64,000 nucleotides of DNA from an uncultured Candidatus Saccharimonadales bacterium (GTDB lineage Bacteria > Patescibacteriota > Saccharimonadia > UBA4664), in NCBI GenBank assembly GCA_964609585.1, contig CAZSRA010000001.1:287290-351289 (forward strand), in the 5' to 3' direction. The notes under the pieces were generated by a model that ran no database searches, had not been told where the DNA came from, and saw nothing but the letters and a program-made list of their open reading frames with translations. The first letter of the stretch is position 1. The number at the start of each line of letters is the position of its first letter. A program made the position numbers and the translations under genes. Below, piece after piece: positions 3,030 to 22,749 of the stretch.

Positions 3030-3062
3030 ACACGATCAAACCCATTCTGCACGCAGGTGATG

Positions 3063-3068
3063 TATAAT
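3063..3068 (+). promoter_or_regulatory. Perfect -10 hexamer TATAAT, 9 nt upstream of the following gene's ATG; possible leaderless or very short-leader transcript
   Basis: tgTATAATgg at 3061-3070 inside the 47-nt divergent zwf/methyltransferase intergenic region. No SD between it and the ATG at 3077. Confidence 0.3.
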
Positions 3069-3076
3069 GGTGGCTT

Positions 3077-4336
3077 ATGCAAGCCAATATTGTTTTTGAG
3101 AAAATTGTGGGTGGGGGTAAGGCCCTTGGGTATTTGGATGGCCGGCCGTGTTTTGCGGTGGGGCCGCTTCCAGGGGAGGCAGCAGATGTGCGAGTGGTGC
3201 GAGAGAAGCCGGGCTTTGTGGAGGCGAATGTGGTGCAGTTTACGACTGTATCGGAGCATCGCGGGGAGCCGGTGGAGGCGCATTTTTTGGAGTGTTCGCC
3301 GTGGCAGGGTGTGAAGTACGACTACCAGCTAGGACTGAAAAAGCAAATGCTTGCTGAGGCGTTCGGACGGCTGAAGATGCCGGTAACTGAGATGGTGGGG
3401 GCGAGTGCGCAGTTGGGGTACCGCAATAAATTGGAATTTTCGCTGGTAAAGTCTAGTGACGAGGTGAGCCTGGCCTTTCACGGACGCGGTAGTTATGAGG
3501 ATTTGGTGGCGTTGCCGCAAGGGTGCGCGTTGGGGTCTGCGGCCATGAACACTTCAGCACTGGCTTTAGTGGAGCGTGTACAGGCGCTGAAACTGGCCGG
3601 TTATGTGGAAACGGTGACGGTGCGGCAAAGCGTGTTGACGGGCCAAGTTTTGGGAGTTGTGGCGTTGCATCAAGTGCCAAAGCGAGATTTTAGGGAGCTC
3701 ATGGGCCCGGAACTGGCTGGTTTGGTGGTGGCCAGAGTGCGGCACCGAGATGCTTATGAAATGGTGTGGCATGAAGGTATTACGCAGCTGACCGAACGAA
3801 CTGGTGGCCTGGATCTTGTATATCCTTATAACAGTTTTTTCCAGACTAATCCGGCAATGTTTGAACTGGCCTTGGAGCGGATTTTGAAGCATGTGCCGAG
3901 TGGCGTTCGGCTTGCGGATCTGTATGGTGGCGTGGGTACGATTGGGCTAGCAGCGGCCGGCACTGCGCGCGAAGTTATTGGAGTGGAGGTGAACGCGGAT
4001 AGTGTGGCGCTTGCAAATGCTAACGCGGATCGGAATGGAATTTTGAATTACACAGCAGAGTGTGTGCCGGCCGAAGGTATGGACATGCGAGTTTTGCGAG
4101 GCGCGGATTGCGTGGTAGTGGATCCGCCGCGAGCTGGCTTGCACCGGCGGGTTGTGGAGGCGCTGCTCGAAGCGCGACCGGAACGGATTATTTATTTGTC
4201 TTGTAATCCGGCGACGCAGGTTCGGGATGTTGCGTTGCTGCTTGAGGGATATGCGGCGAAAGGTGTTACGGGGTTTGATTTTTATCCTGGTACTTTGCAC
4301 CTCGAATCACTGGTGGTACTAGACCGGATCACGTAG
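3077..4336 (+). CDS. 23S rRNA (uracil-5-)-methyltransferase, RumA/RlmD family (TRAM domain + SAM MTase)
   Basis: 419 aa with an N-terminal TRAM-like region and a C-terminal class I MTase fold including the DPPRAGL motif typical of the RumA/TrmA family. Confidence 0.8.
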   Translation: MQANIVFEKIVGGGKALGYLDGRPCFAVGPLPGEAADVRVVREKPGFVEANVVQFTTVSEHRGEPVEAHFLECSPWQGVKYDYQLGLKKQMLAEAFGRLKMPVTEMVGASAQLGYRNKLEFSLVKSSDEVSLAFHGRGSYEDLVALPQGCALGSAAMNTSALALVERVQALKLAGYVETVTVRQSVLTGQVLGVVALHQVPKRDFRELMGPELAGLVVARVRHRDAYEMVWHEGITQLTERTGGLDLVYPYNSFFQTNPAMFELALERILKHVPSGVRLADLYGGVGTIGLAAAGTAREVIGVEVNADSVALANANADRNGILNYTAECVPAEGMDMRVLRGADCVVVDPPRAGLHRRVVEALLEARPERIIYLSCNPATQVRDVALLLEGYAAKGVTGFDFYPGTLHLESLVVLDRIT

Positions 4337-4631
4337 AGCGGGCCTACACAAAAAGACCGAGAATGAGGAGAGGGTTTCTCGGCAAGGCGGCTTCCAGGGC
4401 CGGCTCAGAGTTCATGTAAACCCAAAGCCGACCCTATCCTAAATGCAAGCCCGCTATCGCTTTGCTATCGTTTTTGGGGCCTCGGCCGCGAAACGGTGTT
4501 GCTGTGGCTCGGGGCGGCATTTAGGTTCGTAATGCCATGTTGCTCCTTTCAGATAGGGCTTCGCTATAGCGATAATTCTAATTTGCAAGCGGTATGGGTG
4601 TTGTTGTTTTGACATTTTTGTTTTTAGATAC

Positions 4632-4665
4632 CAAAAAAGCCCCATTGCTGGGGCGTTTTTGGTGC
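4632..4665. terminator. Bidirectional rho-independent terminator
   Basis: aaaaaaGCCCCAttgcTGGGGCgttttt: GC stem with an A-tract 5' and a T-tract 3', so it works on either strand. It sits 14 nt downstream of the RRM gene stop. Confidence 0.6.
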
Positions 4666-4678
4666 TAACCAAGTAAAA

Positions 4679-4963
4679 TTAGTAGCGGTTTGGGCGAGGG
4701 CTGCGCTCAGGCATTGGCTTGGCAATGTTGACCGTGAGGCGGCGGCCGTCGAGCTCTTGGTCACCCAGCATCTGGATGGCTTTCTGAGCTTCTTCGTCCG
4801 TACTCATCTCGACAAAGCCGAAGCCCTTCGAGCGACCGGAGTCGCGGTCCATGATAACTTTGGCACTTACAACAGTACCGGCTTGCGCAAAGTGAGCAGC
4901 CAGAGTTTCATCAGTGGTACCAAACGATAGTGAACCAACGAACAGTTTATTGGCGGGGGTCAT
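4679..4963 (-). CDS. RRM-type RNA-binding protein (glycine-poor, single RRM)
   Basis: RNP-2 LFVGSLSF and RNP-1 KGFGFVEM motifs; AGGAGA SD 7 nt upstream of the ATG. Confidence 0.85.
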   Translation of the reverse strand: MTPANKLFVGSLSFGTTDETLAAHFAQAGTVVSAKVIMDRDSGRSKGFGFVEMSTDEEAQKAIQMLGDQELDGRRLTVNIAKPMPERSPRPNRY

Positions 4964-5266
4964 TAATATAATTCTCCTTGGGCGTTCGGTTTTACGAATA
5001 ATTCCGAGAGTCCTTAATATTGTGCTCTGGAATAAGATTCGCGTGGTTGCAGCATTGGCCGCTCGACTAAAACCGACAGGCTTTCACCTGCTTCAAGATT
5101 AAGTGGAGTATAGCATGTTTTAGTGGTGAATACCAGGGTAATGTGATTTTGGTGGTTATCGTTCCAAAACTTCAGATTATATCCTGAAGGCTTGGAGCGA
5201 TGCCGGGGTCCTTACCCGGCTCCTTGCATCTGGCTGATGCAAGAGGCTCCGTTCGAGATGGAGTTC

Positions 5267-6607
5267 TTATTCGCCTGGCTTTATGATTCGGCCAGCAGCT
5301 CGGCAGCGCTCGGCGAATTCCCGTGCTACTGTGAGCGATACCGGTAGCGTGCCAGCATAGTTGGCGAGACCGTTGATGTAGGAAATGGGGTACGTCCGGT
5401 TGGTACGCTGTTCGTTGATAGGAGGCCCAGGGTAGAAGGGTAGAATTCTCCTTCGGTTCCAAGCCCGCAAGAGTCCGGGAGTAATTCCGAGCTTACGTGC
5501 GGTCCTGTTCTGGACATATGTCCGCTTGTGACTAACGAACTGCGATAGCCACTCAAACTCTGGATTAAGCTTCTCCATTTGAGCCTTGAGTTCTGGGACT
5601 TCGTTGGCGTCATAAATGTAAACACGACCAATAGTCCGAAGTAGAGTCAGTTTTCCACAGTCATGGAGTTTTCTGACAACGCTCTCGGAACAACCAAGCT
5701 CCTGCTGGATTTGTCGAGAAGTCCACTCGTGTGACTGGAGAGTCTGCTGTCGGTCTCGTTTGATTTTGAGCCGTTCGACTTCCTCGGCGTCAAAACTTTT
5801 ACCGCGAGTGTTTCTAGGCGAATTGAGGATCCCTTCTTTTGCTAACGCCCAGACGGTTATTTGCGATACTCCGAGTCGATCAGCCGCCTCTTGGGCAGTC
5901 AATCTGGTGAGAGCTGCGGCATGAGTATGCGCATCTTCAGGGAGATAGTGGAGGCGGCGATCGATTTTGACCGCTGGAATCTGTTTGTTTTTCGCCCAGG
6001 TTACCACCTGATCTCGACTGTATCCGCAGAGACTGGCGACCTCTTTTGTGCCCCAAACTTCACCGGCCTCTCGGAATTGGCTGAGGAGGACGCGGGCTTG
6101 CTTTTGATGTTCGGGCGTTCCGTGCTCTATAAGCCAACTAAGATTACAAAGGTTGGCTTGGCTTTGAGTGGGTTGCCTGTTTTTTGTGAAGTCCAAGACG
6201 AGTACGATGTAACTCTCCGGTACCCGAGGTGCTGAGCCCTCCACTATGACAGGCACGCATTTTTCACGAATCCAGTGAATCATCAAGGAATCCGATACCT
6301 GAAGTCGCTCAGCCGCGATTGGGATGTCTAGGTATCTATGTTCTTGAGCCTCTCTGGCTCTTGCTTGCTCTTCTGGGGTTCCGTGCCGCCTTAACCAGGC
6401 CAACCGACATCTGTCTGCCTGATCGAGAGTTGGTTTTTTGCCTTTGCTGAAGCTCAAAACTAGCAAGATGTAGCTCTTGGGAATCTTGGGCCAGGCTTCC
6501 TTTGAGGTGCAGGGTACCCAGTCGTGATTGACCCAGCGGCGCATTTCAAGGTCGGTAATATGAAACAGTCGTGCAGCGTTCGCTAGGCCCACGAGCTCTT
6601 CGGACAT
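5267..6607 (-). CDS. Multi-HTH DNA-binding protein: about six excisionase/MerR-type (HTH_17-like) helix-turn-helix units with an internal tandem duplication
   Basis: Repeated segments such as LFHITDLEMRRWVNHDWVP, LQVSDSLMIHWIREKCVPV, LCGYSRDQVVTWAKNKQIPAVKIDRRL, LGVSQITVWALAKEGIL, LGCSESVVRKLHDCGKLT and LGITPGLLRAWNRRRILP. There is also a duplicated ~50-aa block (KIPKSYILLVLSFSKGKKPTLDQADRCRLAWLRRHGTPEEQ vs RVPESYIVLVLDFTKNRQPTQSQANLCNLSWLIEHGTPEHQ). AGGAGA SD upstream. Confidence 0.7.
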   Translation of the reverse strand: MSEELVGLANAARLFHITDLEMRRWVNHDWVPCTSKEAWPKIPKSYILLVLSFSKGKKPTLDQADRCRLAWLRRHGTPEEQARAREAQEHRYLDIPIAAERLQVSDSLMIHWIREKCVPVIVEGSAPRVPESYIVLVLDFTKNRQPTQSQANLCNLSWLIEHGTPEHQKQARVLLSQFREAGEVWGTKEVASLCGYSRDQVVTWAKNKQIPAVKIDRRLHYLPEDAHTHAAALTRLTAQEAADRLGVSQITVWALAKEGILNSPRNTRGKSFDAEEVERLKIKRDRQQTLQSHEWTSRQIQQELGCSESVVRKLHDCGKLTLLRTIGRVYIYDANEVPELKAQMEKLNPEFEWLSQFVSHKRTYVQNRTARKLGITPGLLRAWNRRRILPFYPGPPINEQRTNRTYPISYINGLANYAGTLPVSLTVAREFAERCRAAGRIIKPGE

Positions 6608-6691
6608 GAGTGATCTCCTAATTGTCTGGGTGCCCTCATTGTGAGATGAAAATACGTTAGCATGTGATGCGGTGCAGGTTCAATTTTGGAG

Positions 6692-7369
6692 CTAAGCTGG
6701 TGGTGGTGTGGTATCGAGATGGAGAGTGGTTTTGCTGGTAACGACACCGCCCTGGTCGAATTCATAGACTATGAGTACGCCAAAGGGCATCTCGAGGTGT
6801 TCCACGGCTTCATTCGAGAGATGCTCGATGTATTTCATGAGGGCACGAATGGTGTTGCCGTGGGCGGTAAGGAGGACGGTTTGGTCCGCTGTGAGCTTGG
6901 GCAAGACGTGGTCTTGAAAATACGGCACAGCTCTTTCATAGACGTCTTTTAGGGTTTCACCGTGCGGCACGGGTTCGTTCCAGCCGCGGCGCCAGCGAGT
7001 GAATTGGTCTTTGCCGTATTTTTCCTCGACTTCCCATTTATTGAGGCCGGTAAGCTGGCCGTAATCGCGTTCATTGAACTCGTGGGCGTGACGTACAGGC
7101 ACCTTCCAATTGTTCGTATGCAGGATGATTTCGAGTGTATCCTTGGCTCTTATAAGTGCCGAGGAATAAGCGATGTTTGGATGATAGTTTGTGAGCGCTT
7201 CGGCCATTTGTTTGGCATCGTGGCGGCCTTTTTTGGTGAGCGGAATGTCCCAAATGCCGGTCCAAAGGCTTTTGGCATTGAATTCTGATTCTCCGTGTCG
7301 AGCAAGGATTAACGTACCCACAAATAGTTGCTCTTTCGTGTTAGTAATCGGGTTGGTTATAGTTATCAT
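6692..7369 (-). CDS. gpmA: 2,3-bisphosphoglycerate-dependent phosphoglycerate mutase (histidine phosphatase superfamily)
   Basis: LILARHGESEFNAKSLWTGIWDIPLTKKGRHDA matches the RHGE catalytic motif of dPGM. I place the start at internal M45 of the tracked ORF (MITITNP...), because the upstream 44 aa are low-complexity. Confidence 0.8.
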   Translation of the reverse strand: MITITNPITNTKEQLFVGTLILARHGESEFNAKSLWTGIWDIPLTKKGRHDAKQMAEALTNYHPNIAYSSALIRAKDTLEIILHTNNWKVPVRHAHEFNERDYGQLTGLNKWEVEEKYGKDQFTRWRRGWNEPVPHGETLKDVYERAVPYFQDHVLPKLTADQTVLLTAHGNTIRALMKYIEHLSNEAVEHLEMPFGVLIVYEFDQGGVVTSKTTLHLDTTPPPA

Positions 7370-7449
7370 AATACACCGCAGGCAAGGGGTGGCCGTTGTA
7401 GAAGTTGGAGTTGACAGGGTCTGTATGTAGTATCGTATACTCAGCTTAA

Positions 7450-7465
7450 GCACTATATGTTGTGT
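7450..7465 (+). promoter_or_regulatory. Candidate NrdR box upstream of the RNR operon
   Basis: gCACTATATgTTGTGt matches 14 of 16 positions of the palindromic NrdR consensus acaCwAtATaTwGtgt; it lies ~180 nt upstream of the nrdA start. Confidence 0.35.
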
Positions 7466-7641
7466 ATGTGCTAGGAGATACCGGAGATGAGACGCCGGCA
7501 ATTATTCGGGGGGATACGGCCCGAATCTCCTCATTTCTTGAGCCCAGAAGCTTCTTTCGGCAGCATTAGTCGGTGAAACTTCCGCCTACTCTTGAGGTGG
7601 CTTTTTATTTCTTAAAATTTCAAAAAAATGAGAGGGGCCGA

Positions 7642-10029
7642 ATGGATATCACCGTTACAAAGCGTGATGGCACAAAACAGCCATATGACGCAAATAAAAT
7701 CAACACAGCGCTGGAGCGAGCCAGTCGTGGACTCGATGACCAAATTGGTATGGTGGTTCAGGTAGCTACCGAGGTGAGCTTGACGCTGTTTGACGGCATT
7801 ACCACGGAGGAGCTCGATGAAGCTGTTATTCAAACAGCTTTGCAGAATGTAAAAGAAGATCCGGCGTTTGATACGATTGCCGCTCGACTGCTGCTTAAAA
7901 CCATATACAAGCGAGTACTGGGTGATTACGAGACAGACGCGGAGCTCAAGAAACTGCATGCCGACAAGTTTGTGAGCTATGTGCGAGCTGGCGTGAAGAG
8001 TGGTCTTTTGGACGAGCGGATGGCGCAGGCCAGCTTCGACTTGAAGAAGTTGGCGGCGGCGATTGATCCGAAACGGGATGATTTGCTGCGGTACCTGGGG
8101 GTGGTGACGACGCGTAATCGCTATAGCCTGCGCAGCACAGACGGTGAACTGCTTGAGGTGCCACAATTTAGTTTGATGCGCGTGGCTATGGGTCTTGCTT
8201 ACAATGAAGCCGATCCGACGACGGTGGCTCTAGGTTTTTATGACAAGATGAGCCGGCTCGACTATTTGCCGGGTGGATCGACGCGGGTGAACGCGGGTAC
8301 GAAGTTTCCTCAGCTTGCCAACTGTTTCCTGATGGAGATGCAAGACGATATTGAGCATATCGCCAAATCCAACCGCGACATTATGTGGATGACTAAAGGT
8401 ACGGGCGGCATTGGCCTGTCGGTGACGAAGTTGCGGGCGGAAGGTTCACCGGTACATAGCAACAATACGTATTCGAGCGGCCCAATCCCCTTCATGCATA
8501 CGGTGGACTCGATTTTGCGAGCGATTTCGCGCAACGGGAAGAAGTTTGGCGCTCTGTGCTTCTATATGGAAAACTGGCACATCGATTTCCCGCAATTTTT
8601 GGACCTGAAACAAAACTCGGGTGATCCGTACCGACGTACTCGTACGGCCAACACCGCGGTGTGGATTTCCGATGAGTTTATGAAGCGGGTCAAAAATGAT
8701 GAAGCTTGGTACTTGTTTGATCCAGCTGAAACGCCCGATCTTAACGAGCTATATGGTGCGGCTTTCAGCAAGCGTTACGCGGAGTACGTGAAGCTGGCGG
8801 AAAGCGGTAAGATGCGCTTATTTAAGAAGATGGGCGCACGTGAGCAATTTAAGGCCATTTTGATCTCGCTGCAGACCACTTCGCACCCATGGCTTACCTG
8901 GAAAGACACGGTGAATAACCGGGCTCTCAACAACAACACGGGCACGATTCACATGAGTAATTTGTGCACAGAGATTTGTTTGCCGCAGGACCGCGAAAAT
9001 ATTGCGGTGTGCAACTTGGCCTCGATTAACTTGTCGGCGCATTTGGTGGAAGAGGCGCGCGATTTTGACTGGCAGCGGCTTGAAGCCAGTGTGCGATCGG
9101 CAGTGCGACAGCTCGACAATTTGATCGACATTACGGTGTCGAACATTGAAGAGGCGACACACTCAAACTTGCAAAACCGCGCGGTGGGCCTGGGGCTCAT
9201 GGGCTTTACGGACGTGACCGAACGGCTAGGAATGGCTTATGAGAGCGACGAAGCTTACGCGCTCATCGATAAGCTTGCTGAATTCATTAGCTACTATGCG
9301 ATTGATGAGAGTGCGAATTTGGCCAAGGAGCGTGGATCGTACCCTATGTACAAGGGCTCGCGGTGGAGTATGGGGCTGGTGCCGTTCGATACTCTTGCGG
9401 AAACAGCCAAGGATCGGCGTGTCAAAATTACGGTGGACCAAAAAGCCAGGCTCGATTGGGACAAGCTGCGGATAAAAGTAAAGAAGGGTGTGCGCAACGC
9501 TACGCTCATGGCGGTGGCGCCGACGGCCAATATGGCTCACACGGCCGGTACGACTCCGGGGATTGATCCGCAGTTTTCGCAAATCTTTAGCCGGGCGACA
9601 CTGAGCGGCAAATTTTTGGAAGTAAACGTGAACTTGGTGGCGGCGCTCAAGAAGCTAGGACTATGGGCTCAGGTGCGCGAGGACATTTTGCGAGCGCAGG
9701 GCGACATTCAGGACATTGAAGCGATTCCGGACGTGATTAAAGCAGTGTACAAGACATCGTTTCAGCTCTCGCCCTATGCGTTCATTGAGGTGGCGGCGCG
9801 CGCGCAGAAATGGATCGACCAGGCGCTGTCGCGCAATATGTATCTTGAAACACGCGACGTAGATGAGATGATGAAGATCTATTCTACGGCCTGGGAGAAG
9901 GGTCTTAAAACCACCTATTACCTGCATGTAAAGCCCAGACATACGGCGGAGCAGAGCACGGTGAAGGTAAATAAGTCGGAGGACATTGTAGCGCGCAAAC
10001 CTGGTTTTGGCTTCGGATTCGGTAAATAG
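7642..10029 (+). CDS. nrdA: Ribonucleoside-diphosphate reductase class I alpha subunit with N-terminal ATP-cone
   Basis: ATP-cone VTKRDGTKQPYDANKI at the N-terminus and a class I large-subunit core (795 aa). GAGAGGGG SD 6 nt upstream of the ATG at 7642; the tracked ORF extends upstream in frame through non-coding-looking sequence. Confidence 0.9.
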   Translation: MDITVTKRDGTKQPYDANKINTALERASRGLDDQIGMVVQVATEVSLTLFDGITTEELDEAVIQTALQNVKEDPAFDTIAARLLLKTIYKRVLGDYETDAELKKLHADKFVSYVRAGVKSGLLDERMAQASFDLKKLAAAIDPKRDDLLRYLGVVTTRNRYSLRSTDGELLEVPQFSLMRVAMGLAYNEADPTTVALGFYDKMSRLDYLPGGSTRVNAGTKFPQLANCFLMEMQDDIEHIAKSNRDIMWMTKGTGGIGLSVTKLRAEGSPVHSNNTYSSGPIPFMHTVDSILRAISRNGKKFGALCFYMENWHIDFPQFLDLKQNSGDPYRRTRTANTAVWISDEFMKRVKNDEAWYLFDPAETPDLNELYGAAFSKRYAEYVKLAESGKMRLFKKMGAREQFKAILISLQTTSHPWLTWKDTVNNRALNNNTGTIHMSNLCTEICLPQDRENIAVCNLASINLSAHLVEEARDFDWQRLEASVRSAVRQLDNLIDITVSNIEEATHSNLQNRAVGLGLMGFTDVTERLGMAYESDEAYALIDKLAEFISYYAIDESANLAKERGSYPMYKGSRWSMGLVPFDTLAETAKDRRVKITVDQKARLDWDKLRIKVKKGVRNATLMAVAPTANMAHTAGTTPGIDPQFSQIFSRATLSGKFLEVNVNLVAALKKLGLWAQVREDILRAQGDIQDIEAIPDVIKAVYKTSFQLSPYAFIEVAARAQKWIDQALSRNMYLETRDVDEMMKIYSTAWEKGLKTTYYLHVKPRHTAEQSTVKVNKSEDIVARKPGFGFGFGK

Positions 10030-10063
10030 TTTTTAAAACGTATATAAGAGGGAGATTATTGCG

Positions 10064-10270
10064 ATGGGATTTAACAACAATGCTGTAGCTGAGGCGGATG
10101 TAACGACTGAGGCAACCGATGAAGTGGCTGCTAGGCTTGCTGCTATTGCCGAGGCGGTAGCGGCCCGCACGCAGGGTATGACCGACAATGCACCAGCACG
10201 CAATTTGAGCGAGGGCATGGCTTGCCCGGTAGATCCAGCTGAACGCGCGCTGTGCGATAGCTGCCAGTAG
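10064..10270 (+). CDS. Small acidic Ala-rich protein (68 aa) with C-terminal Cys cluster, between nrdA and nrdB
   Basis: Strong SD AAGAGGGAG 9 nt upstream of the ATG; C-terminus ...MACPVDPAERALCDSCQ. The antisense ORF covering the same span is low-complexity. Confidence 0.4.
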   Translation: MGFNNNAVAEADVTTEATDEVAARLAAIAEAVAARTQGMTDNAPARNLSEGMACPVDPAERALCDSCQ

Positions 10271-10303
10271 AACATATTAACTAGTAGGGGCGACAAGAGA
10301 TTT

Positions 10304-11320
10304 ATGAAGATTTTAGGATCAGGTATTCAAGACGGATTACTTTTAAAACCCATACATTATCAATGGGCCTACGATTTGTATAACCAGGCCGTGGCAAATA
10401 CTTGGTTTCCTAACGAGATTCAGTTGGGCGAAGATCTGGCCGACTGGAAGAAGATGAGCGATGAGGAGCGGCACGCACTCACCTTTCTTATGAGTTACTT
10501 CAACCCGAATGAGCTCTTGGTGAACAAAGCGCTAGCGTTTGGCGTATATCCGTACATTAATGCGGCTGAGTGCCATTTGTATCTGGCTAAGCAAATGTGG
10601 GAAGAGGCCAACCACTGCATGAGCTTTGAATATGTGCTGGAGACATTTCCGATTGACCGCGAGCAAGCATATGCGGCGCATGTGGACACGCCAAGCATGG
10701 CGCGCAAGGAAGCGTTTGAGGTTAAATACATCAAACGTATGACGGAGCAGACGCTTGATATTGCGACGACCGAAGGCAAAAAAGATTTTGTGCGCAACTT
10801 GGTGGCCTACAACATTATCCTAGAGGGCATTTGGTTTTATAGTGGGTTTATGGTGGCGCTTAGCTTCCGTCAGCGCAATCTGCTGCGTAACTTTGGGTCG
10901 CTGATCGACTGGATTGTACGGGATGAGAGCTTGCATTTGAAGTTTGGTATTAATTTGATTTTGACCGTACTTGATGAGAACGAAGATTTGCAGACGCCGG
11001 AATTTGCGGACGAAATTAAGCAGATGATCCTGGACGGTGTCGAGATGGAGACAAAGTACAATGAAGATTTGCTGCCAAACGGAATTTTGGGACTGAATGC
11101 GAGCTACATTAATCAGTACGTGAAATATTTGGCTGATCGCCGCCTGGAAGAGCTTGGTTTTGGATCGCACTACAACGTGAGTAATCCGGCTAAATGGATG
11201 GCGACGGCCAACGATACACTGCAGCTCGTGAATTTCTTTGAGGCTACTAACACGAGTTATGAGGTAAACGCCCAGGCTGGCGGCGCAGGCTCTGGTTCGA
11301 AGGAGCGCAAAGATGGCTAG
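10304..11320 (+). CDS. nrdB: Ribonucleotide reductase class I beta subunit; ligand pattern E70 / E101-x-x-H104 / F108 / E...ESLH suggests a class Ic-like (tyrosyl-radical-free) R2
   Basis: Ferritin-like di-metal motifs WEEANH and RDESLH. With E101/H104 aligned to the canonical ExxH, the residue at the radical-Tyr position (H+4) is Phe (HCMSF). The first ligand, 31 residues upstream, is Glu (NPNE), not Asp. Confidence 0.85.
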   Translation: MKILGSGIQDGLLLKPIHYQWAYDLYNQAVANTWFPNEIQLGEDLADWKKMSDEERHALTFLMSYFNPNELLVNKALAFGVYPYINAAECHLYLAKQMWEEANHCMSFEYVLETFPIDREQAYAAHVDTPSMARKEAFEVKYIKRMTEQTLDIATTEGKKDFVRNLVAYNIILEGIWFYSGFMVALSFRQRNLLRNFGSLIDWIVRDESLHLKFGINLILTVLDENEDLQTPEFADEIKQMILDGVEMETKYNEDLLPNGILGLNASYINQYVKYLADRRLEELGFGSHYNVSNPAKWMATANDTLQLVNFFEATNTSYEVNAQAGGAGSGSKERKDG

Positions 11321-11443
11321 GCGTAGGTTTGGCGTTACGCGTCATACCCCGGGTTCGATGCATGAGCTCATGGAGCTGCCACTGACTCGAGCGGTTGTGA
11401 TGAGCGAGCTTGTGCTTTTGATGTGGGTACTCGTTGTGAAGCG

Positions 11444-12709
11444 ATGAGCCGCAAGGTTTTGGTGCCCGATGGCGCTTCGTTCCTACGGAAGCTGCTAGCG
11501 TTTTCGGGGCCAGGGTATTTGGTGGCGGTTGGGTATATGGATCCGGGCAACTGGGCGACCGATTTGGCGGGTGGATCGGGATTTGGTTATAGCTTGTTGT
11601 TTGTGGTGCTTGTGTCGAGCGTGATGGCGATGTTTTTGCAGTATTTGGCTATCAAGCTCGGTGTGGTTACGGGCAAGAATTTGGCACAGCTGTGCGGTGA
11701 GGTATTTCCAAGGCCAGTGAGGCTGGGATTGTGGGCGATGGCGGAAACAATGATCGTCGCTTGCGACTTGGCGGAAGTGATTGGTACGGCGATCGCGCTT
11801 AATTTACTGTTTCATATTCCGCTAATGATCGGTGTGATTTTGACAGCCGGAGATGTCTTGGTGCTTTTGGTGTTGCAACGAAGAGGCGTGCGATCGCTTG
11901 AGGCACTGGTGATAACACTTGTGATCACAGTACTTGTGTGTTTCGGCTTGGAACTGGTGTTTTCGGCACCTCAGCTTGCGGCATTGTGGGGTGGATTTCT
12001 GCCAACCACCGAGATATTTTCGCGGTCGGATATGCTGTATGTGGCGGTTGGAATTGTGGGGGCTACGGTGATGCCGCACAACTTGTATTTGCACTCGGCC
12101 GTGGTGCAGTCACGCCAGATTGGTTCGAGTGAGGCAGCGAAGCGCGAGGCGATCCGGTTTGCGACGATTGATTCGACGTTAGCCTTAACGCTTGCGGCTT
12201 TTGTAAACATGGCGATTTTGGCCGTAGCGGCAGCTACCTTTTTTGCTCATGGTCGAACGGGAGTAGTGGAGATTGGTGAGGCGTATCGATTGCTTACTCC
12301 CCTACTCGGTGTGGGGGCGGCGAGTGTAGTGTTTGCCGTGGCGTTGCTGGCCTCGGGTCAAACCTCGACTATTACGGGAACGATGGCGGGGCAGGTTATT
12401 ATGGAGGGTTTCCTGCATCTGCACATGCGTCCGTGGATTCGGCGGCTTATTACGCGGGGGCTCGCGATTGTACCGGCGGTGGTAGTTGTGGTTTTGTATG
12501 GAGGTTCGGGACTCTCGAAATTGCTTATTTTGAGCCAAGTGATCTTGAGTGTGCAATTGTCGTTTGCGGTGTGGCCGTTGGTGGTTTTTACGAGTCGAAA
12601 GAAATGGGTGGGGGTGTTTGCAAATTCTAGTCTTATGAGACTAGCAGCGGGCGGCGTGGCGGCGTTGATATCAAGCTTGAATCTGTGGCTAGTATTAAAA
12701 CTCGTTTGA
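11444..12709 (+). CDS. mntH: Nramp-family divalent metal (Mn2+/Fe2+) transporter
   Basis: Signature GPGYLVAVGYMDPGNWATDLAGG (DPGN motif) and 11-12 TM helices. Start is ambiguous: ATG at 11444 (MSRKVL) or GTG at 11423. Confidence 0.8.
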   Translation: MSRKVLVPDGASFLRKLLAFSGPGYLVAVGYMDPGNWATDLAGGSGFGYSLLFVVLVSSVMAMFLQYLAIKLGVVTGKNLAQLCGEVFPRPVRLGLWAMAETMIVACDLAEVIGTAIALNLLFHIPLMIGVILTAGDVLVLLVLQRRGVRSLEALVITLVITVLVCFGLELVFSAPQLAALWGGFLPTTEIFSRSDMLYVAVGIVGATVMPHNLYLHSAVVQSRQIGSSEAAKREAIRFATIDSTLALTLAAFVNMAILAVAAATFFAHGRTGVVEIGEAYRLLTPLLGVGAASVVFAVALLASGQTSTITGTMAGQVIMEGFLHLHMRPWIRRLITRGLAIVPAVVVVVLYGGSGLSKLLILSQVILSVQLSFAVWPLVVFTSRKKWVGVFANSSLMRLAAGGVAALISSLNLWLVLKLV

Positions 12710-12846
12710 TGGGCGAGATCTATTTATTTTTGGCTGTTAATCTGAAAAAAGTATGCTATATTTGTCGGCGGCCTCGGTAACGAGGCCTGTTCTCGCAAAA
12801 AACCATCCCATCCGTTTCCCGAAAGTGCTTGGAGGTGTTCGCACCT

Positions 12847-13971
12847 ATGTCACTACTGATGCTTGGGCATATGTCACACAAGGCAATGCTCTACGGTGCA
12901 ATGTACGCCCTGCTATCCTCGATCCACAAGCCCCTCATCAAGGTAACGAGGAAGAGCCTCGGCCACCCGGCCACGAGGTCCGATCCGCGCAACTTCGTGC
13001 TCATCAACGCTATGTACGCGACGGTGCTCTTGGCCGTCATTACGGGGATTCTACTACTGGTCTTCCCCGTCCCGCACGTGGACCCGATGTTGTTCTTGCT
13101 TCCGGCACTCCTGGCTGGCTGCCTGCAATTCATCGGTGGGACTCAGGGCACGGCGGCATTTGAAGAGGGTAATCTGGGCCTGATCGTGCCGTTTAACGGC
13201 CTGGTTCCCCTGGTTCAATTGTTCATCGTGTGGGGGGTCAAGGGACGGGAACCCAAGATCGTCGGGCTCATTGGCGTGGCGCTCGTGGCGTTTGGGGTTT
13301 TCGTTGCTTACCAGAAGAAGGCGGCTGCGGCCAGCCCTGCTCCGGTGGCTGTGGCGGGGGCTCCTCGTACTTGGCTGGGGCGATCTTTGTATGGCCACCC
13401 AGGTCGACGCTACGGGATTGCGCTGACAGCTTGGACGATCTACGCTTTCCCGCTGACCTCGGCTACGGGGGCTATCACCTCGAAGTTCTACCCGGCGGCG
13501 CAGCACAAGCTGCCGCCAGTCGCGCCGTACCTCACATCGGGTGTGGTGCTGCTCGTGATGACGGTTCTCGGAACGATTCACTGCTACTACAACCGAGTGG
13601 TGGAGCTTCAGGACCTAGCCGTCGCTACCGGTAGCGGTTCTACGGGTTTGCTCAAAGAGGCCTTCATCGAGATGAGACGATCGGTGCGGAGTGGCGCAGT
13701 GGAGCTGCGTCGCCTGTTCGTCATCAGCGCCTCTTTGGTTGCGATCGAGCAGTACTTCGAGCTCACCGGTCTTTGGATCGGGCCGATTCCGGCAGTATCG
13801 GCGCTGTTTAAGCTCTCGATCTTCTTCAACGTGCCGATGAGTTGGCTCGTCTTCTGGTGCTTCTCCAAGTTTGGCCGCAGGAGATGGGGGGTTGAGCCAG
13901 GTGAGCGGCTAACGCTCCGCATCATAGTCACGGCGATCTTGGTCACCTTTGGGGCCATTCTGATCGGCTAA
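12847..13971 (+). CDS. Polytopic membrane protein, function unknown (G+C-rich gene)
   Basis: GGAGGTG SD at 12831-12837, 9 nt before the ATG at 12847 (MSLLMLGH...); the tracked ORF begins at an upstream TTG. Multiple hydrophobic helices; G+C is higher than neighbours by eye. Confidence 0.55.
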   Translation: MSLLMLGHMSHKAMLYGAMYALLSSIHKPLIKVTRKSLGHPATRSDPRNFVLINAMYATVLLAVITGILLLVFPVPHVDPMLFLLPALLAGCLQFIGGTQGTAAFEEGNLGLIVPFNGLVPLVQLFIVWGVKGREPKIVGLIGVALVAFGVFVAYQKKAAAASPAPVAVAGAPRTWLGRSLYGHPGRRYGIALTAWTIYAFPLTSATGAITSKFYPAAQHKLPPVAPYLTSGVVLLVMTVLGTIHCYYNRVVELQDLAVATGSGSTGLLKEAFIEMRRSVRSGAVELRRLFVISASLVAIEQYFELTGLWIGPIPAVSALFKLSIFFNVPMSWLVFWCFSKFGRRRWGVEPGERLTLRIIVTAILVTFGAILIG

Positions 13972-14127
13972 CAGGTTTTTTTGCGGGAGGAGCCGGCCGC
14001 TGGACTTAAGGGTGAGAACTCTAGAGTTTGGCGCGCCGGCTTTTCGCGTTTTTAACTTTGGGCTGGAATTGACGGCTGCATCACTGATTTATCGACGCCG
14101 TAAGAAATTCTTAAGAAGCAAGACACA

Positions 14128-14577
14128 TCATGAACGAGTTGGCTCAACGTTTGGGCCAAGAAAATACTCAAGTCGTTTTGAATGGCCGGCGGATCCTGTG
14201 CGTTCACGTTCTTTGTCGGCTGCGACTGCATCAAACCATGATTGCGGCGACGTGGTGTGTGGATCGAACTTGGCACCCCAGGTTGCAAGTTCTGCGAGAA
14301 TAGGCGCGATTGCCAAGCCCTTTTCGGTTACATAATAGAAGTCTTTGCGCTTATCGGTGTCGTGGGGTCTTTTGGCTACGATCCCCTGCTCTTCTAGGCG
14401 GGCAAGGCGAACGGTGAGTACTTGGGTGGAGATGCCTTCTTTTGAATTTAGGAATTCACCGTAGGTGTGTTTGTCGCGGTCGACAATATCGCGAATGATA
14501 AGCAGTGACCATGGGTCGCCAAATGCTTCGAGGGAGAAATTAATGGGGCAATGAGATTTGGTATCTGTGCGCTTCAT
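14128..14577 (-). CDS. HxlR-family winged-helix transcriptional regulator
   Basis: CPINFSLEAFGDPWSLLIIRDI...YGEF....GISTQVLTVRLARLEEQGIV is the typical HxlR/MarR-like wHTH core. It is divergent from the amidase gene. Confidence 0.7.
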   Translation of the reverse strand: MKRTDTKSHCPINFSLEAFGDPWSLLIIRDIVDRDKHTYGEFLNSKEGISTQVLTVRLARLEEQGIVAKRPHDTDKRKDFYYVTEKGLAIAPILAELATWGAKFDPHTTSPQSWFDAVAADKERERTGSAGHSKRLEYFLGPNVEPTRS

Positions 14578-14631
14578 GGTTTCATTATAGCATAGTTTAC
14601 TTTAATAATCAAAGTATGATATGCTCCCGTT

Positions 14632-15849
14632 ATGAATAAGAACTATCATTTTCAAACTATCAACGATTTAAGCGCCCTGATTCGAGAAGGCAAGGTGTCG
14701 CCGGTAGATCTCGTGAAAGAATGCCTCGATAGGATCGAGAAGCTTAACCCGACTCTTAATGCCTTCATTACGGTGACGGCCGAGCAGGCCTTGGCCGATG
14801 CGAAAATGGCTGAAGAGGAAATTAAGGCTGGCAAGTGGCGCGGACCTTTGCATGGTATTCCAGTGGCGTTTAAGGATTTGTACGACACAGCTGGCATTAA
14901 AACGACAGCAGCTTTTGAGCATTTTCAGAACCGGGTTCCGAAGAAGGATGCTGTCGCCGTTACGAAACTCAAGGAAGCGGGCGCGATTATCGTCGGCAAA
15001 ACCAATATGCATATGCTTGCGATGGGGACTACCTCGAATGTGAGTTTTTATGGGCCGGTGCATAATCCATGGAACGAAGCATATATTGCTGGTGGTTCCT
15101 CGGGTGGTTCGGCGGCCGCGGTGGCTGCTGGTATGTGTTTTGCTACTATCGATACGGACGCGATCGGGTCTTGTCGGTTGCCCGCGGCTTGTTGCGGCGT
15201 TGTAGGCTATAAATGTACCTGGGGTTTGATCGACAACACTGGTATTTTGGACGGAGAGCAGGCGGATCCGATGATTATTAAGCTTGCAACCGTCGGGATT
15301 ACGACGCGGGATGTAGCCGATACGGCATTGGTGGCGGATGTGCTTGCCGGGAAGGCTTTCGCTGAATCTACGATTCAGAGTGAGGCTAAGCCGCGGATTG
15401 GCGTGGTAGTGAACTTTGGCGCGACAGATCCAGTGCGAGCAGCTTTCAACCGAGCCGCCGAGACATTTAAGAAGCTTGGCTATGACTTAACTGAGGTGAG
15501 CGCTCCTTTTAGCGAGAATCCTGACATGCAGGCCATCGACGCGAGCCGCGCTACGGCAAATGCGGACGTTTTTAAAGACGTTGACGTGCTGATTTTGCCC
15601 ACAACCGCAAGCGAAGTGCTCACGGCTTCAGCCGCAGGCGAGAATCCTCAGGCCTTGTCGCCTCAGAATACGTTTTTTGCTAATTACTTGGCTTTGCCTG
15701 CTGTTTCGGTGCCCAACGGCTTTGATGAGACTGGATTGCCAATTGGACTGCAAGTGGTGGGCAAGCAGGACGACGACGCAATGGTACTGAGGGTAGCAGA
15801 AGTATTCCAGAGTGCGACGAAATGGCACGATGAGCACCCGGCGATTTAA
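14632..15849 (+). CDS. Amidase-signature family amidase (GatA-like, short)
   Basis: Amidase signature GGSSGGSAAAVAAG plus catalytic Lys/Ser context (VAFKDLYDTAGIKTT). Confidence 0.8.
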   Translation: MNKNYHFQTINDLSALIREGKVSPVDLVKECLDRIEKLNPTLNAFITVTAEQALADAKMAEEEIKAGKWRGPLHGIPVAFKDLYDTAGIKTTAAFEHFQNRVPKKDAVAVTKLKEAGAIIVGKTNMHMLAMGTTSNVSFYGPVHNPWNEAYIAGGSSGGSAAAVAAGMCFATIDTDAIGSCRLPAACCGVVGYKCTWGLIDNTGILDGEQADPMIIKLATVGITTRDVADTALVADVLAGKAFAESTIQSEAKPRIGVVVNFGATDPVRAAFNRAAETFKKLGYDLTEVSAPFSENPDMQAIDASRATANADVFKDVDVLILPTTASEVLTASAAGENPQALSPQNTFFANYLALPAVSVPNGFDETGLPIGLQVVGKQDDDAMVLRVAEVFQSATKWHDEHPAI

Positions 15850-15856
15850 GGCTTTT

Positions 15857-17377
15857 TTAAGCGTATCCGGAGAAGAAATCAATCTTGATATTGCGACGGT
15901 GCACCCCTAGCTCGGCTAAATTTGTCTTCATGGCTTGTACCATGGAGTAGGTGCCAGAAATGTAGAACGTTCGCTCTAGATAGTCGGGCACTGTTTGCTT
16001 AATGAGCTCTGGTGTGATTCTGCCCGAGATGGTGTATGGGAGTCCTAAGACGTCCGTTTGCTGGGATAGGACATACGTGATATTTAGGCCTAGGGTGATG
16101 CGAGCTTGTTCGAATATCTCTTGGTAGGCAAGATCCTTTTGGTTTTGTGCTGAGTAGAGCATGGTGATAGTTCTGAGCTCGTGCTTATCGAGTAAGTATT
16201 TGGTCATACTCCGGAAGGGGGTGATGCCGATGCCGCCGGCTAAAAAGACAAGCTTTTTGGATTGGTCGTCTGGCATAACGAAATCGCCGGCAAGCTGAGA
16301 GGCCACTATTTGGGTGTCTTGAGTTATGTTTAGAAGTGCTTGCTTGAACGTGCTGCTTGGGTGATAGAATTTGACGCCTATTCGGATATCGGGCTCAGTC
16401 GGTGACGAAGCGAGCGTGAGGTAGCGCCGACTGCCGCGGGCGTCGGCGTGCTTGTGCGGTAACGTCCATTCGAGATATTGGCCAGGTTTGTAGTTGACGG
16501 GTTTGCCGGGCGAAAAGATAAAATCGGCTGTATTGCTGGCGATGGTTAAGCGTTGCTTGAAGGCAGGGAATAATTTGAATTTTGGACTTACGATGTATGC
16601 GAAGACGTTTCCAATGATTAGAGCGAGCTCTGGTGACGAGTAAAATTTGAGAATATGCACTTGAGGCGGGAGTAATGCGGCTACGAGAGCGGCGTACCAA
16701 AGTTGTTTTGTTTGGGTTGGCGGGGAGGTTTGAGGTTCTGTGAGCATAATAAAGCCGAGGAAAAAGACCGGTGAGCTAAGCATCATATTCTGCAAGCTTG
16801 CCAGAATGTTGCCAGAGCTAAAGAAAGAATAGGTAACGGTTGCAATTACTGAGACTGCGAAAAATCCGAGTATCATTGGTTCTTGTCGTAGTTTGCGCAT
16901 TATGAGAATTCCGCCGAGGATGACAAACGGCAACATAATGGCGGTGTCTACCCACCAGCTAGCGGTTTGTTTTGCACCAAGTGCCGTTAAGACGAGAGCT
17001 AGAGCGGCTGGGTTAAACAGATGTTTCTTGTTTATGGTTAAGAGGTATTTTGAAGCGATGGCCAGCCCGGAAGCCGCTAGCATAAAAATAATTCCAAAGC
17101 GGGTTAGGTCCGGTGTGATGATAAGAGCTAGAATCAAACCAGTAATGAGCGAAGATTCGCTATTGATGGGGGCCTCGAATACGTGTGCAAAAACGCGGTT
17201 TATAGCCCAGCAGGCGGCCACCAAAATTACGCTTGAGATGACGATATAGCTTGGGTTGTAGTGAAGATCACCTACGATCGCAAGGCCAACGGCGGCCAGC
17301 AATAGGCCCAAGAGATAGTAAAGGAGCAATCGGTACATCGTGATGGTATCGATAAAAGAATCGATTATTTTATACAT
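15857..17377 (-). CDS. Membrane-anchored FNR-like flavoprotein reductase (N-terminal ~8-TM domain + C-terminal FAD/NAD(P)-binding ferredoxin-reductase fold)
   Basis: C-terminal RRYLTLASSP (RxYS FAD motif) and LVFLAGGIGITPFRSM (NAD(P) GxGxxP motif). The N-terminal 280 aa are polytopic membrane, with no obvious bis-His heme pairs. Confidence 0.75.
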   Translation of the reverse strand: MYKIIDSFIDTITMYRLLLYYLLGLLLAAVGLAIVGDLHYNPSYIVISSVILVAACWAINRVFAHVFEAPINSESSLITGLILALIITPDLTRFGIIFMLAASGLAIASKYLLTINKKHLFNPAALALVLTALGAKQTASWWVDTAIMLPFVILGGILIMRKLRQEPMILGFFAVSVIATVTYSFFSSGNILASLQNMMLSSPVFFLGFIMLTEPQTSPPTQTKQLWYAALVAALLPPQVHILKFYSSPELALIIGNVFAYIVSPKFKLFPAFKQRLTIASNTADFIFSPGKPVNYKPGQYLEWTLPHKHADARGSRRYLTLASSPTEPDIRIGVKFYHPSSTFKQALLNITQDTQIVASQLAGDFVMPDDQSKKLVFLAGGIGITPFRSMTKYLLDKHELRTITMLYSAQNQKDLAYQEIFEQARITLGLNITYVLSQQTDVLGLPYTISGRITPELIKQTVPDYLERTFYISGTYSMVQAMKTNLAELGVHRRNIKIDFFSGYA

Positions 17378-18116
17378 CTGAGCCTACATATTTTTTGAAT
17401 CCACTCGTGAAGGTGGCGATTTTTTTCGAGTCAATCATATAGCCTTCTAGATCTCTCGTTTCCTCGATGAAGGAAATGCTGCGCTCGCTCATGGCAAAGG
17501 CGGCAGTTGCAAAGCGGTCGGCTTCGTAGACGTTTGGACCGATAACGGTAAGGCTTGCGATGTTGGCTAGGGGGTCGTTTTCGTCGAAGGGGTTGTAGAT
17601 GTGACTGCCGCGAATGTAGGTTCCTGACGTGGCCATGCCTTGGTTGTGGAGGTGCACAACTTTGACGATTTCGCCGAGATTAAAGGGGCTGCGGATGCCG
17701 ACGGCCCATGGCTGTCCTTGAGCATTTACGCCGTGAGCCTGGATGTCGCCACCGGCTTCAATGTAGAAGTTGCGGGCGCCGAGTTCTTGAAACTTATTGG
17801 CGGCATTTTGGATGGCCCAGCCTTTTACGAGCCCCGAAGGGTCGAGGCGGCCATTGTGTTCGATATTAAAGTATCCGTGCGTGAGTTTTGAGGTTTCGGC
17901 GCATAGCTTTAAGACGTGGAGCATCTCCTTGCTCCACTGGTTTCTACCGAGGCCATCATTGATTTTTGAGATTTCGCTTGATGGTTTGTAGGTGCTGTAG
18001 CGCTCATCGATAGTCTTAAAGTAGGTAAAAATGTTTTCGATGTCGGCGCCCATGATGTTTCTATCCAGCACTTCGATCGTAATAGGCATTCCCATAATGA
18101 TTTGAGTTTGTTTCAT
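17370..18116 (-). CDS. apbE: ApbE-family FAD:protein FMN transferase
   Basis: 248-aa ApbE fold (…GLVKGWAIQ…, …IEAGGDIQAHG…); overlaps the downstream reductase gene start by 8 nt. Confidence 0.8.
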   Translation of the reverse strand: MKQTQIIMGMPITIEVLDRNIMGADIENIFTYFKTIDERYSTYKPSSEISKINDGLGRNQWSKEMLHVLKLCAETSKLTHGYFNIEHNGRLDPSGLVKGWAIQNAANKFQELGARNFYIEAGGDIQAHGVNAQGQPWAVGIRSPFNLGEIVKVVHLHNQGMATSGTYIRGSHIYNPFDENDPLANIASLTVIGPNVYEADRFATAAFAMSERSISFIEETRDLEGYMIDSKKIATFTSGFKKYVGSDV

Positions 18117-18125
18117 ACTCTTTGT

Positions 18126-18581
18126 TTAGGCCTGCGATAACGCTGAGCTTAGTGATTGAGTGAAAGCTTGAGAGGTAAAGGTGGCTCCGGAAACGACTTG
18201 AACGTCAGCGCTTTGAGCCTGGATGGCTTCTTGCTGCAAATACGGCATGGCTTGGCTATTAATTTCGATAGAGGTTGAGTGCGTATCGGGATATTGCAAG
18301 AAGGTAACATTGGTTAATTTCCCGCCGGAGATCGTAGCCTTCACTTGAACGCTCCCGTAATAAGCATCGGCTACGGTACCGGTATAGGTACCATCTTTAT
18401 ACCGGGCAGCATTGGCTGCAGGCGGAGTTGCTGCGGAATTGTTTGAAATTAGCGGGCTTGGCGAAGCACTGCCTTCTGATAAGGATGCAGGCTTGGGTAA
18501 CGTTGGTGTTTCGTGGCGCATCCCCAAGCTATAGAGCATAAATATGCCAAAAACGCCGGCTGCAACAATAAATCTTTTCAT
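18126..18581 (-). CDS. Membrane-anchored FMN-binding domain protein (predicted flavinylation substrate)
   Basis: N-terminal TM anchor MKRFIVAAGVFGIFMLYSL, then an FMN_bind-type domain with the D-x(4)-SGAT flavinylation motif (DVQVVSGATFTS). Confidence 0.7.
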   Translation of the reverse strand: MKRFIVAAGVFGIFMLYSLGMRHETPTLPKPASLSEGSASPSPLISNNSAATPPAANAARYKDGTYTGTVADAYYGSVQVKATISGGKLTNVTFLQYPDTHSTSIEINSQAMPYLQQEAIQAQSADVQVVSGATFTSQAFTQSLSSALSQA

Positions 18582-18691
18582 TGCGACTAGTTTGTCAGAT
18601 TTTGCTGTAGATTTCCTGAGTTATGAGTGTGGTTGTCTTTCACAGCCGATGCGCGGATACTAAAAACAGTTATGTTGAAGAGTGGTGATTT

Positions 18692-19774
18692 ATGAACCGA
18701 CGTCTGTTTGTTGCTGCGGGTGTTGCCTTAGTACTTGGTATCGGAGTCTGGTCTGGACTAGCTACGAAAACTTATGGGCCTATTATTCAGGTAAGTATGG
18801 CGATTTCGGTCGTGGCGGCTCTGCTCAATATGCTGGCTGTTCCCTTTTTTCTTGGAGGTGTTCGCCAGTTTAAAGCCGAGCTGCAGCGGGCCTACCTCAT
18901 TCTTTGTATCGGTATTGGGATCTTTGGGTTTGCGCAGATTCAGTTACCATTCATCACGCTCTTTGACTGGTGGGGTTGGATTAATTCTGGTGGAATTGCC
19001 GTGCCGTACCTTGTGGGAGTTGTTTGTATGCTTTGGGGTATGCGGGTGTTCGCGGCACTTTTACGAGTAAAGCGATTTGGGACGTCGCCATTTGCGGCAT
19101 TTGGTTTGTCGGTGGTGCTGTCGCTTGCTGCCGTTTTGGTGCCGCATGTTAAGATCGCGACTGATGAGCTTACGTTTCATTTATCGCTTGCGATTAGTAT
19201 TTTTGATTCGGTATTTGTGAGCTTTGCGGCTGTGATTGCTTTTCAAATTCGAAGAATTATCGGCGCGACCTATATCCGGTCAATGAGCTGGCTGTGTGCT
19301 GCACTGGTAGTCGTTTCTGTTGCCGGCTGGCAGTATGTGGCGGTTCAATTAACGTTGCATACTGGTGACTGGTACTACGACTATACGGTTATGGTAGCTC
19401 CGTTTATTTTGGGCGGTTTGCTGTTGGTGGCGGCGGGGTATGCGTTTAGCAATATCAATGTTTGGTCGGGCGGTAGGGCAAGCCAGCGTTCGGCGTTGGA
19501 GCTGGATGTGGTGATGTATGTGGCGGGCTTGGTGTCTAATCCGTCGGAGATAAACTTGGCTTTGGAAGATGTGCGCCGGGTGACCTCGCACATGACGTTT
19601 GGACAGGCTTTATCGGATGAAGGCCGAGCGGTGATGGTGGGAGTATATGCAAAAATAGAGCTTTACCTGGTTGAGAATGATCCCTTGCGGACATTTTCGC
19701 GGGAAGAACTTCGGCACAGAATCGCCAAAGAGTTTGAACTGGGCGATCAGCCGAGCTTGCCATTGTGGGCTTAG
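18692..19774 (+). CDS. Hypothetical polytopic membrane protein (360 aa)
   Basis: Long ORF with ~8 hydrophobic segments; divergent from the FMN-binding/ApbE/reductase operon. Confidence 0.55.
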   Translation: MNRRLFVAAGVALVLGIGVWSGLATKTYGPIIQVSMAISVVAALLNMLAVPFFLGGVRQFKAELQRAYLILCIGIGIFGFAQIQLPFITLFDWWGWINSGGIAVPYLVGVVCMLWGMRVFAALLRVKRFGTSPFAAFGLSVVLSLAAVLVPHVKIATDELTFHLSLAISIFDSVFVSFAAVIAFQIRRIIGATYIRSMSWLCAALVVVSVAGWQYVAVQLTLHTGDWYYDYTVMVAPFILGGLLLVAAGYAFSNINVWSGGRASQRSALELDVVMYVAGLVSNPSEINLALEDVRRVTSHMTFGQALSDEGRAVMVGVYAKIELYLVENDPLRTFSREELRHRIAKEFELGDQPSLPLWA

Positions 19775-22717: not shown

Positions 22718-22749
22718 GGGCAGCTAGCAGGTTGCTGCCAGGTATCTCT

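Follow-up and report, generated by a model that had tools for sequence, protein, structure and literature searches.

Class I ribonucleotide reductase (RNR) small subunits (R2, or beta) that have no tyrosine at the radical site and carry Glu as first metal ligand were recognized in 2004, together with the structure of the Chlamydia trachomatis protein (R2c). In the large (alpha) subunit of class I enzymes, a C-terminal CXXC cysteine pair normally re-reduces the active site. By 2014 more than 150 Tyr-less R2 sequences had been counted (PMC4118035). Redox-active C-terminal cysteines on a separate polypeptide have been described for the split class II enzyme NrdJa/NrdJb of Pseudomonas aeruginosa, in which the main role of that polypeptide is thiol-disulfide exchange with the catalytic subunit (PMC4520616). 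Here we analyzed the nrd locus in a 64,000-nucleotide (nt) stretch of DNA, called the window below, from an uncultured Candidatus Saccharimonadales bacterium (assembly GCA_964609585.1, contig CAZSRA010000001.1, positions 287,290 to 351,289), in which nrdA, a small open reading frame (ORF), nrdB and mntH follow one another on the + strand. Its NrdB is of the Tyr-less type, and the small ORF looks like an RNR redox tail encoded in trans; the latter is a lead worth following and, if it holds, would matter more than the Tyr-less NrdB.

The gene at 10304..11320 (+) encodes a product of 338 amino acids (aa) which, according to family models and alignments, is an RNR small subunit. It matched PF00268 in Pfam (E = 1e-74) and scored 404 bits with the NCBIfam RNR beta model NF007186, for which the cutoff is 237. 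A search against solved structures returned C. trachomatis R2c at the top (1SYY/4D8F, E = 1e-70), followed by the R2 of Saccharopolyspora erythraea (6Y2N, E = 1e-66); the F127Y variant of the chlamydial protein (2ANI) also matched. The two R2c proteins outscored all other solved structures by more than 100 bits, the next best reaching 3e-36, E. coli NrdB 1e-19, the class Id structures 5OLK and 6SF4 about 1e-13, class Ib structures about 1e-9 to 1e-14 and NrdF about 1e-9.

Direct counting placed a complete dimetal site of four Glu and two His in NrdB, with Glu and not Asp first: E70 (NPNE; codon 10511-10513), E101 and H104 (WEEANH; 10604-10606 and 10613-10615), E174 (ILEGIWFY; 10823-10825), and E208 and H211 (DESLH; 10925-10927 and 10934-10936), all on the + strand. 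The position that bears the tyrosyl radical in class Ia and Ib enzymes is occupied by an oxidation-resistant Phe, F108 (HCMSF; 10625-10627, +), whilst the radical-transfer residues W34 and Y319 (codon 11258-11260, +) are kept. The sequence-only reading of this stretch had named E70, E101, H104 and F108, the 31 residues between E70 and E101, an intact second ExxH (ESLH) and an intact bridging Glu (ILEGIWFY), and all of these were confirmed.

A BLASTP alignment to C. trachomatis R2c (37% identity over 309 residues) contained a single two-residue gap near residue 50, far from the metal site. With a constant offset of +19, the six ligands correspond to chlamydial E89, E120, H123, E193, E227 and H230, and F108 to F127, the residue that defines the class by having no hydroxyl. 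Alignment with MAFFT likewise placed F108 on Y122 of E. coli NrdB and Y105 of NrdF, and E70 on their Asp ligand. NrdB shares with the chlamydial protein (1SYY, 4D8F/4M1I) the E/E/H/E/E/H ligands, the radical-site Phe and a Tyr two residues further on, as well as F178 (F197), W34 (W51), Y319 (Y338) and a short tail past the pathway Tyr; it differs in belonging to another subfamily, in having W203 in place of Y222, and in coming from a Saccharibacterium and not from Chlamydia. The S. erythraea R2 (PMC7467353) shows the same ligand and Phe pattern but is only about 36% identical, and in neighbor-joining (NJ) trees it clusters with the chlamydial protein and not with the subfamily of the window. 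The register was settled through sequence alignment to these solved structures; an AlphaFold2 model built from 26 close homologs (85–93% identity, a shallow alignment) had a mean predicted local distance difference test score of 55 and was not used.

These residues also allowed comparison with the published subclass table, in which class Ic (NrdBzc) has E-E-H-E-E-H ligands, F, L or V at the radical site, and second-sphere residues E (preceding ligand 2) and D (preceding ligand 5) (PMC6370689, Table 4). RNRdb-based work routinely assigns Tyr-less R2 proteins through such residues (PMC6370689). NrdB of the window has the six ligands in this order, Phe at the radical site and, as read from the translation, E100 (WEEANH) and D207 (RDESLH) in the second sphere, with W34, Y319 and the catalytic set of NrdA in place. 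By comparison, classes Ia and Ib have Asp first and Tyr at the radical site, where NrdB has Glu70 and Phe108; class Id (NrdBi) keeps the Tyr and has C or S before ligand 2, where NrdB has F108 and E100 (PMC6370689, PMC8463856). Class Ie (NrdFe), with its metal-free dihydroxyphenylalanine radical, has lost ligands 2, 4 and 5 (Q/V, S/P and K), which NrdB retains as E101, E174 and E208, and the proposed class 'If' (cyanophage Cyano SP clade), which shares the E-E-H-E-E-H set, has Asp before ligand 2, the position of E100 (PMC6370689, Table 4). The sequence-only reading had taken Phe at the radical site with Glu first as the class Ic pattern, and both the alignments to R2 sequences of the different classes and the published residues agree with this, so that NrdB is almost certainly a Tyr-less class Ic-type RNR beta subunit.

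The pattern is strongly conserved. At 90% identity NrdB clusters in a group with 589 members, and among its best 120 homologs, at 84–95% identity, all 12 sites examined were the same in 119, so that chance is no issue; W34 and Y319 were invariant among the homologs examined. Among 150 representatives at 50% identity, a first-ligand Glu occurred with F in 34, with V, L or I in 10 and with Y in 7, whereas a first-ligand Asp occurred with Y in 41 and with C in one, and never with F, L, V or I; the first ligand and the radical-site residue thus co-vary. In a crude NJ tree the NrdB of the window lay inside a tight subfamily with Glu, Glu, His and Phe throughout (EEHF; bootstrap 100/100). This placement fits the published scatter of class Ic-like sequences, which are spread across, and common in, the NrdAz and NrdAq groups (PMC9669993). 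Tyr-less R2 proteins number in the hundreds, and as such the NrdB described here is an ordinary further member, the finding of which adds little.

Upstream of nrdB, nrdA (7642..10029, +) encodes a class I RNR large subunit of 795 aa. The listed ORF starts at GTG 7573; the alignment to NCBIfam NF005101 (1433 bits, from residue 24 of the GTG ORF) begins at ATG 7642, taken as the start here, and extended only to model position 788 of 822. Pfam found an ATP-cone, Ribonuc_red_lgN and Ribonuc_red_lgC. The ATP-cone is single and N-terminal (about 7651..7911, +; PF03477, E = 5.6e-18), and with nrdA upstream of nrdB the earlier proposal that this R2 is paired with an ATP-cone NrdA held. The best solved relative was the class Ia NrdA of P. 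aeruginosa (5IM3, E = 2.8e-191, residues 3–781 aligned), a match which places the protein in NrdAz, a group that includes class Ic-like enzymes (PMC9669993). In P. aeruginosa the enzyme carries two ATP-cones and works with a beta subunit that bears a Tyr radical, and C. trachomatis NrdA has three cones (PMC9669993), whereas NrdA of the window has one cone and no C-terminal Cys. From the alignment, the catalytic and pathway residues are intact: C228, N440, C442, E444, C457, Y759 and Y760 correspond to E. coli C225, N437, C439, E441, C462, Y730 and Y731. The last 338 residues of NrdA, ending in ...RKPGFGFGFGK, contain no Cys at all.

Between nrdA and nrdB lies a 68-aa ORF (10064..10270, +), preceded by a Shine-Dalgarno-like GAGGGAG and ending in ...ACPVDPAERALCDSCQ, which carries the CxxC of an RNR redox-tail motif. 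We compared 80 related loci (L001–L080; 39 of Saccharibacteria type and 41 actinobacterial) with the window, giving 81 loci. Together with named database hits, the 80 loci mark the organism of the window as a Saccharibacterium (TM7). In this set nrdA lay directly 5' of nrdB in all of those extending far enough upstream. The motif P-x-D-P-x-[DE]-x3-C-[ED]-[SG]-C-Q-stop was found just 5' of nrdB in 81/81 loci, window included, with the D, the P and both Cys invariant. It stood in a separate ORF in 75 loci (39 Saccharibacteria-type and 36 actinobacterial) and was fused to NrdA in the other six, all actinobacterial and among them Demequina, Mumia and Aeromicrobium. The actinobacterial loci with a separate ORF were mostly Microbacteriaceae, complete Leifsonia chromosomes included; for one Demequina locus (L074) the 'separate' call is uncertain, as nrdA is missing from the contig. 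The separate tail ORFs are about 22–70 aa long and lie in varying frames, mostly with a start codon and a purine-rich site 5' of it. The separate tail ORF is kept in Saccharibacteria and Microbacteriaceae, whereas related Actinobacteria keep the tail fused. Neither the 68-aa ORF nor the related tail peptides matched a Pfam or NCBIfam family, and the two database copies of the small ORF that we found were both without a name.

A programmed frameshift joining nrdA to the small ORF was considered as another route to a fused tail and is ruled out in the window. The stop at 10034-10036, downstream of the nrdA stop, closes the frame of the small ORF, so that no single frameshift can fuse the two. 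Across loci the small ORFs occupy all three frames relative to nrdA. In most Microbacteriaceae, where the small ORF is usually in the -1 frame, a -1 frameshift might still operate.

Judging from its motif and position, the 68-aa peptide is probably a trans-encoded CxxC redox shuttle for NrdA. The active-site disulfide C228-C457 would be re-reduced by the CxxC of this peptide, because NrdA itself has no C-terminal cysteines. Whether the class Ic RNR of this lineage is a three-polypeptide enzyme, in which NrdA has lost its redox tail and the peptide acts in trans to pass electrons on to the disulfide of the active site, with thioredoxin or glutaredoxin as their source, we regard as evenly balanced. 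A motif search of the window found no ORF like thioredoxin, glutaredoxin/NrdH or NrdR. A trans-encoded tail would be the first such split in class I RNR; the literature we searched held nothing specific on a class I tail in trans, and the only precedent there was NrdJa/NrdJb. That system differs in being class II and B12-dependent, whereas the split described here is in class I and is kept in two phyla, and no sequence relationship was detectable between the 68-aa peptide and NrdJa/NrdJb. In a published survey the C-terminal CXXC pair was present in 1737 of 2022 class I alpha sequences and lacking in 285 (PMC9531940). If true, the proposal would mean that a redox tail of RNR is functional as a free peptide. 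This bears on how the tail gains access to the active site, and some of the class I alphas that lack the C-terminal pair (285/2022, PMC9531940) would then be accounted for.

On the other side of nrdB, 102 nt downstream and on the same strand, the gene at 11423..12709 (+) encodes a predicted MntH-type NRAMP importer of divalent metal (Mn2+). It matched Pfam Nramp (E = 4e-126) and scored 589 bits with the NCBIfam MntH model NF001923 (cutoff 430), in agreement with the earlier statement that mntH is the very next gene. Among Saccharibacteria-type loci, 10 of 39 had an NRAMP gene within about 1.2 kb 3' of nrdB on the same strand, of two types that were 60–65% and 34–37% identical to the MntH of the window, and three further Saccharibacteria loci had a ZIP-like permease downstream of nrdB. 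The linkage of nrdB with NRAMP genes is thus recurrent but not general, and the recurrence of an NRAMP or ZIP gene beside nrdB gives modest genomic support for a demand for Mn in addition to Fe. The three permeases (L038, L049 and L066) are 267–269 aa long, lie about 0.7–0.9 kb 3' of nrdB at loci with no NRAMP gene, and were judged ZIP/ZupT-like by eye from HNxPEG motifs. The commonest gene 3' of nrdB in Saccharibacteria was zwf-like, again judged by eye from sequence. Directly 3' of mntH in the window is a 380-aa ORF (12829..13971, +) that looks hydrophobic and has no Pfam match.

The sequence-only reading had gone on to propose a heterobimetallic cofactor. The class Ic reading is supported at the sequence level, whereas Mn/Fe is drawn by analogy with the C. 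trachomatis enzyme, and on that analogy we consider a Mn/Fe cofactor in NrdB likely; a class Ic-type beta subunit working by the Mn/Fe mechanism as a whole seems to us similarly probable. In such an enzyme site 1, which adjoins F108, would hold Mn(II) and site 2 Fe(II), and the two metals would react with O2 to give Mn(IV)/Fe(III) (by analogy with C. trachomatis, PMC8463856), and this center would store the oxidizing equivalent in place of a tyrosyl radical. Upon binding of alpha2, the center would reversibly oxidize C442 of NrdA via Y319 of beta and Y759/Y760 of alpha, and the C442 thiyl radical would start nucleotide reduction. The adjoining MntH-type importer may supply the Mn2+.

Several observations weigh against a Mn/Fe assignment. 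The NrdB subfamily of the window is distinct from the lineage of the biochemically studied C. trachomatis and S. erythraea proteins: an exclusive Tyr-less clade with chlamydial R2c appeared in only 1/100 NJ bootstraps, with deep nodes left unresolved by these crude trees, and the Tyr-less state may have had more than one origin. As the subfamily is not resolved as an exclusive clade with the characterized enzymes, the assignment rests on analogy and not on close descent. The position of chlamydial Y222, which is implicated in an electron relay in cofactor activation, is W203 in NrdB (codon 10910..10912, +). Roughly three quarters of the Saccharibacteria loci have no mntH beside nrdB, and among the 41 actinobacterial loci none has mntH there and none the ZIP-like permease. 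In the nrdB-mntH spacer a hairpin precedes a short run of U, so that co-transcription of the two genes is hypothetical; the predicted fold of the spacer does not stand out from shuffled sequence (z -0.67). Finally, a sequence does not reveal which metal is bound, reviews emphasize that the metal does not follow from the ligand sphere (PMC4118035), and the C. trachomatis scaffold is known to mis-metallate (PMC8463856). W203 itself is invariant in the subfamily of the window, whilst the representatives have Y, W, F, L, M or H at this position.

The main rival to a Mn/Fe center is a Tyr-less R2 with a homodinuclear cofactor, either Fe2(IV/III), as first proposed for C. trachomatis R2c, or a class Id-like Mn2(IV/III). 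The same six-ligand sphere is found in Fe2, Mn2 and Mn/Fe proteins (PMC4118035), the NJ trees do not resolve the NrdB subfamily as sister to the characterized Mn/Fe enzymes, and a neighboring Mn importer would suit a Mn2 cofactor equally well. However, the Tyr is retained in class Id proteins, in which the second ligand is preceded by C or S instead of E (PMC6370689, Table 4), the class Id structures 5OLK and 6SF4 match NrdB far more weakly than R2c does (about 1e-13 vs 1e-70), and C. trachomatis R2c needs both Mn and Fe for maximal activity (PMC8463856). We therefore hold a homodinuclear center to be unlikely, and a Mn/Fe center remains our preferred reading.

Two other explanations would take NrdB out of class Ic altogether. 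As a Tyr stands two residues past F108, an ordinary class Ia subunit could have had its radical Tyr missed through a register shift; the sequence-only reading had itself singled out Y110 reached by a two-residue shift. This failed, since Y110 corresponds to Y129 of the chlamydial prototype, which is a class Ic protein with the same Tyr. There is no gap between the ExxH and position 108 in alignments to C. trachomatis R2c, S. erythraea R2, E. coli NrdB or NrdF, and the BLASTP alignment to E. coli NrdB is gap-free from the first ligand to the radical site. In the published table, moreover, a first-ligand Glu never goes together with the residues of class Ia. With ungapped alignments and a Tyr shared with R2c, a register shift cannot rescue the radical Tyr, and these comparisons leave the class Ia explanation effectively refuted and extremely improbable. 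The protein might alternatively not be an RNR subunit, being instead an R2-like ligand-binding oxidase (R2lox) or an inactive partner subunit. R2lox proteins have an all-Glu ligand set and no radical Tyr, and NCBIfam R2lox models did match NrdB weakly. Yet these matches reached at most 80 bits against cutoffs of at least 194, compared with 404 against 237 for the RNR beta model. The pathway residues Y319 and W34 are invariant, nrdB follows nrdA at the 81 loci wherever they extend far enough upstream, all ligands are intact, and the 64 kb of the window hold no second nrdA or nrdB besides 7642..10029 and 10304..11320. We give R2lox or an inactive subunit scarcely any weight.

Control of the operon may be both allosteric, through the ATP-cone, and transcriptional, through an NrdR-box-like operator. 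A palindrome of this kind, GCACTATATGTTGTGT, lies at 7450..7465, 177 nt 5' of the nrdA ATG; nowhere else in the 64 kb of the window did ACACWATATWTWGTGT match with up to three mismatches. Of the 31 Saccharibacteria loci compared, 26 had a similar palindrome 5' of nrdA, against 57 of 2498 (2.3%) background windows of 350 nt, and the sequence at 7450..7465 is likely the operator of the nrd operon. Rfam searches around nrdA, nrdB and mntH, at gathering thresholds and at E ≤ 1, gave neither a riboswitch nor a leader, with one chance snoRNA match only, and thus no Mn or B12 riboswitch. The nrdA leader also contains a terminator-like hairpin, CCGCCTACTCTTGAGGTGG followed by CTTTTTATTT (7582..7609, +), about 35 nt before the ATG, which has no match in Rfam and could act as an attenuator.

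Saccharibacteria are ultra-small epibionts, and Actinobacteria are known as their hosts. When the window (7642..11320) was compared with loci L031–L080, NrdB was about 85% identical (80–89%) and NrdA about 66% between Saccharibacteria and Actinobacteria (Microbacteriaceae and others). The two groups separated in an NJ tree of NrdA, in which the window branched early. An NrdB identity of about 85% is very high for two phyla, and this suggests an old horizontal transfer of nrd genes between the lineages. We found no paper discussing the RNR class of Saccharibacteria in the literature searched. Saccharibacteria seem to depend on an aerobic RNR of the class Ic type, which would imply that they require Mn besides Fe and that they may resist radical scavengers, for example hydroxyurea or nitric oxide.

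Some other features of the window were recorded. Two genes upstream of nrdA, a 446-aa protein (5267..6607, -) has an unusual architecture of several helix-turn-helix repeats (HTH_17/MerR-type; Pfam E = 5e-16 and 1e-11). In a 506-aa protein (15857..17377, -), an NQR2/RnfD-like membrane domain is followed by an FNR-like NAD-binding oxidoreductase domain at the C-terminus. The window also contains a tRNA (42402-42473, -) and an L10 leader (60935-61098, -). GC skew was positive in every 2-kb bin of the window (1..64000), ranging from 0.09 to 0.28.

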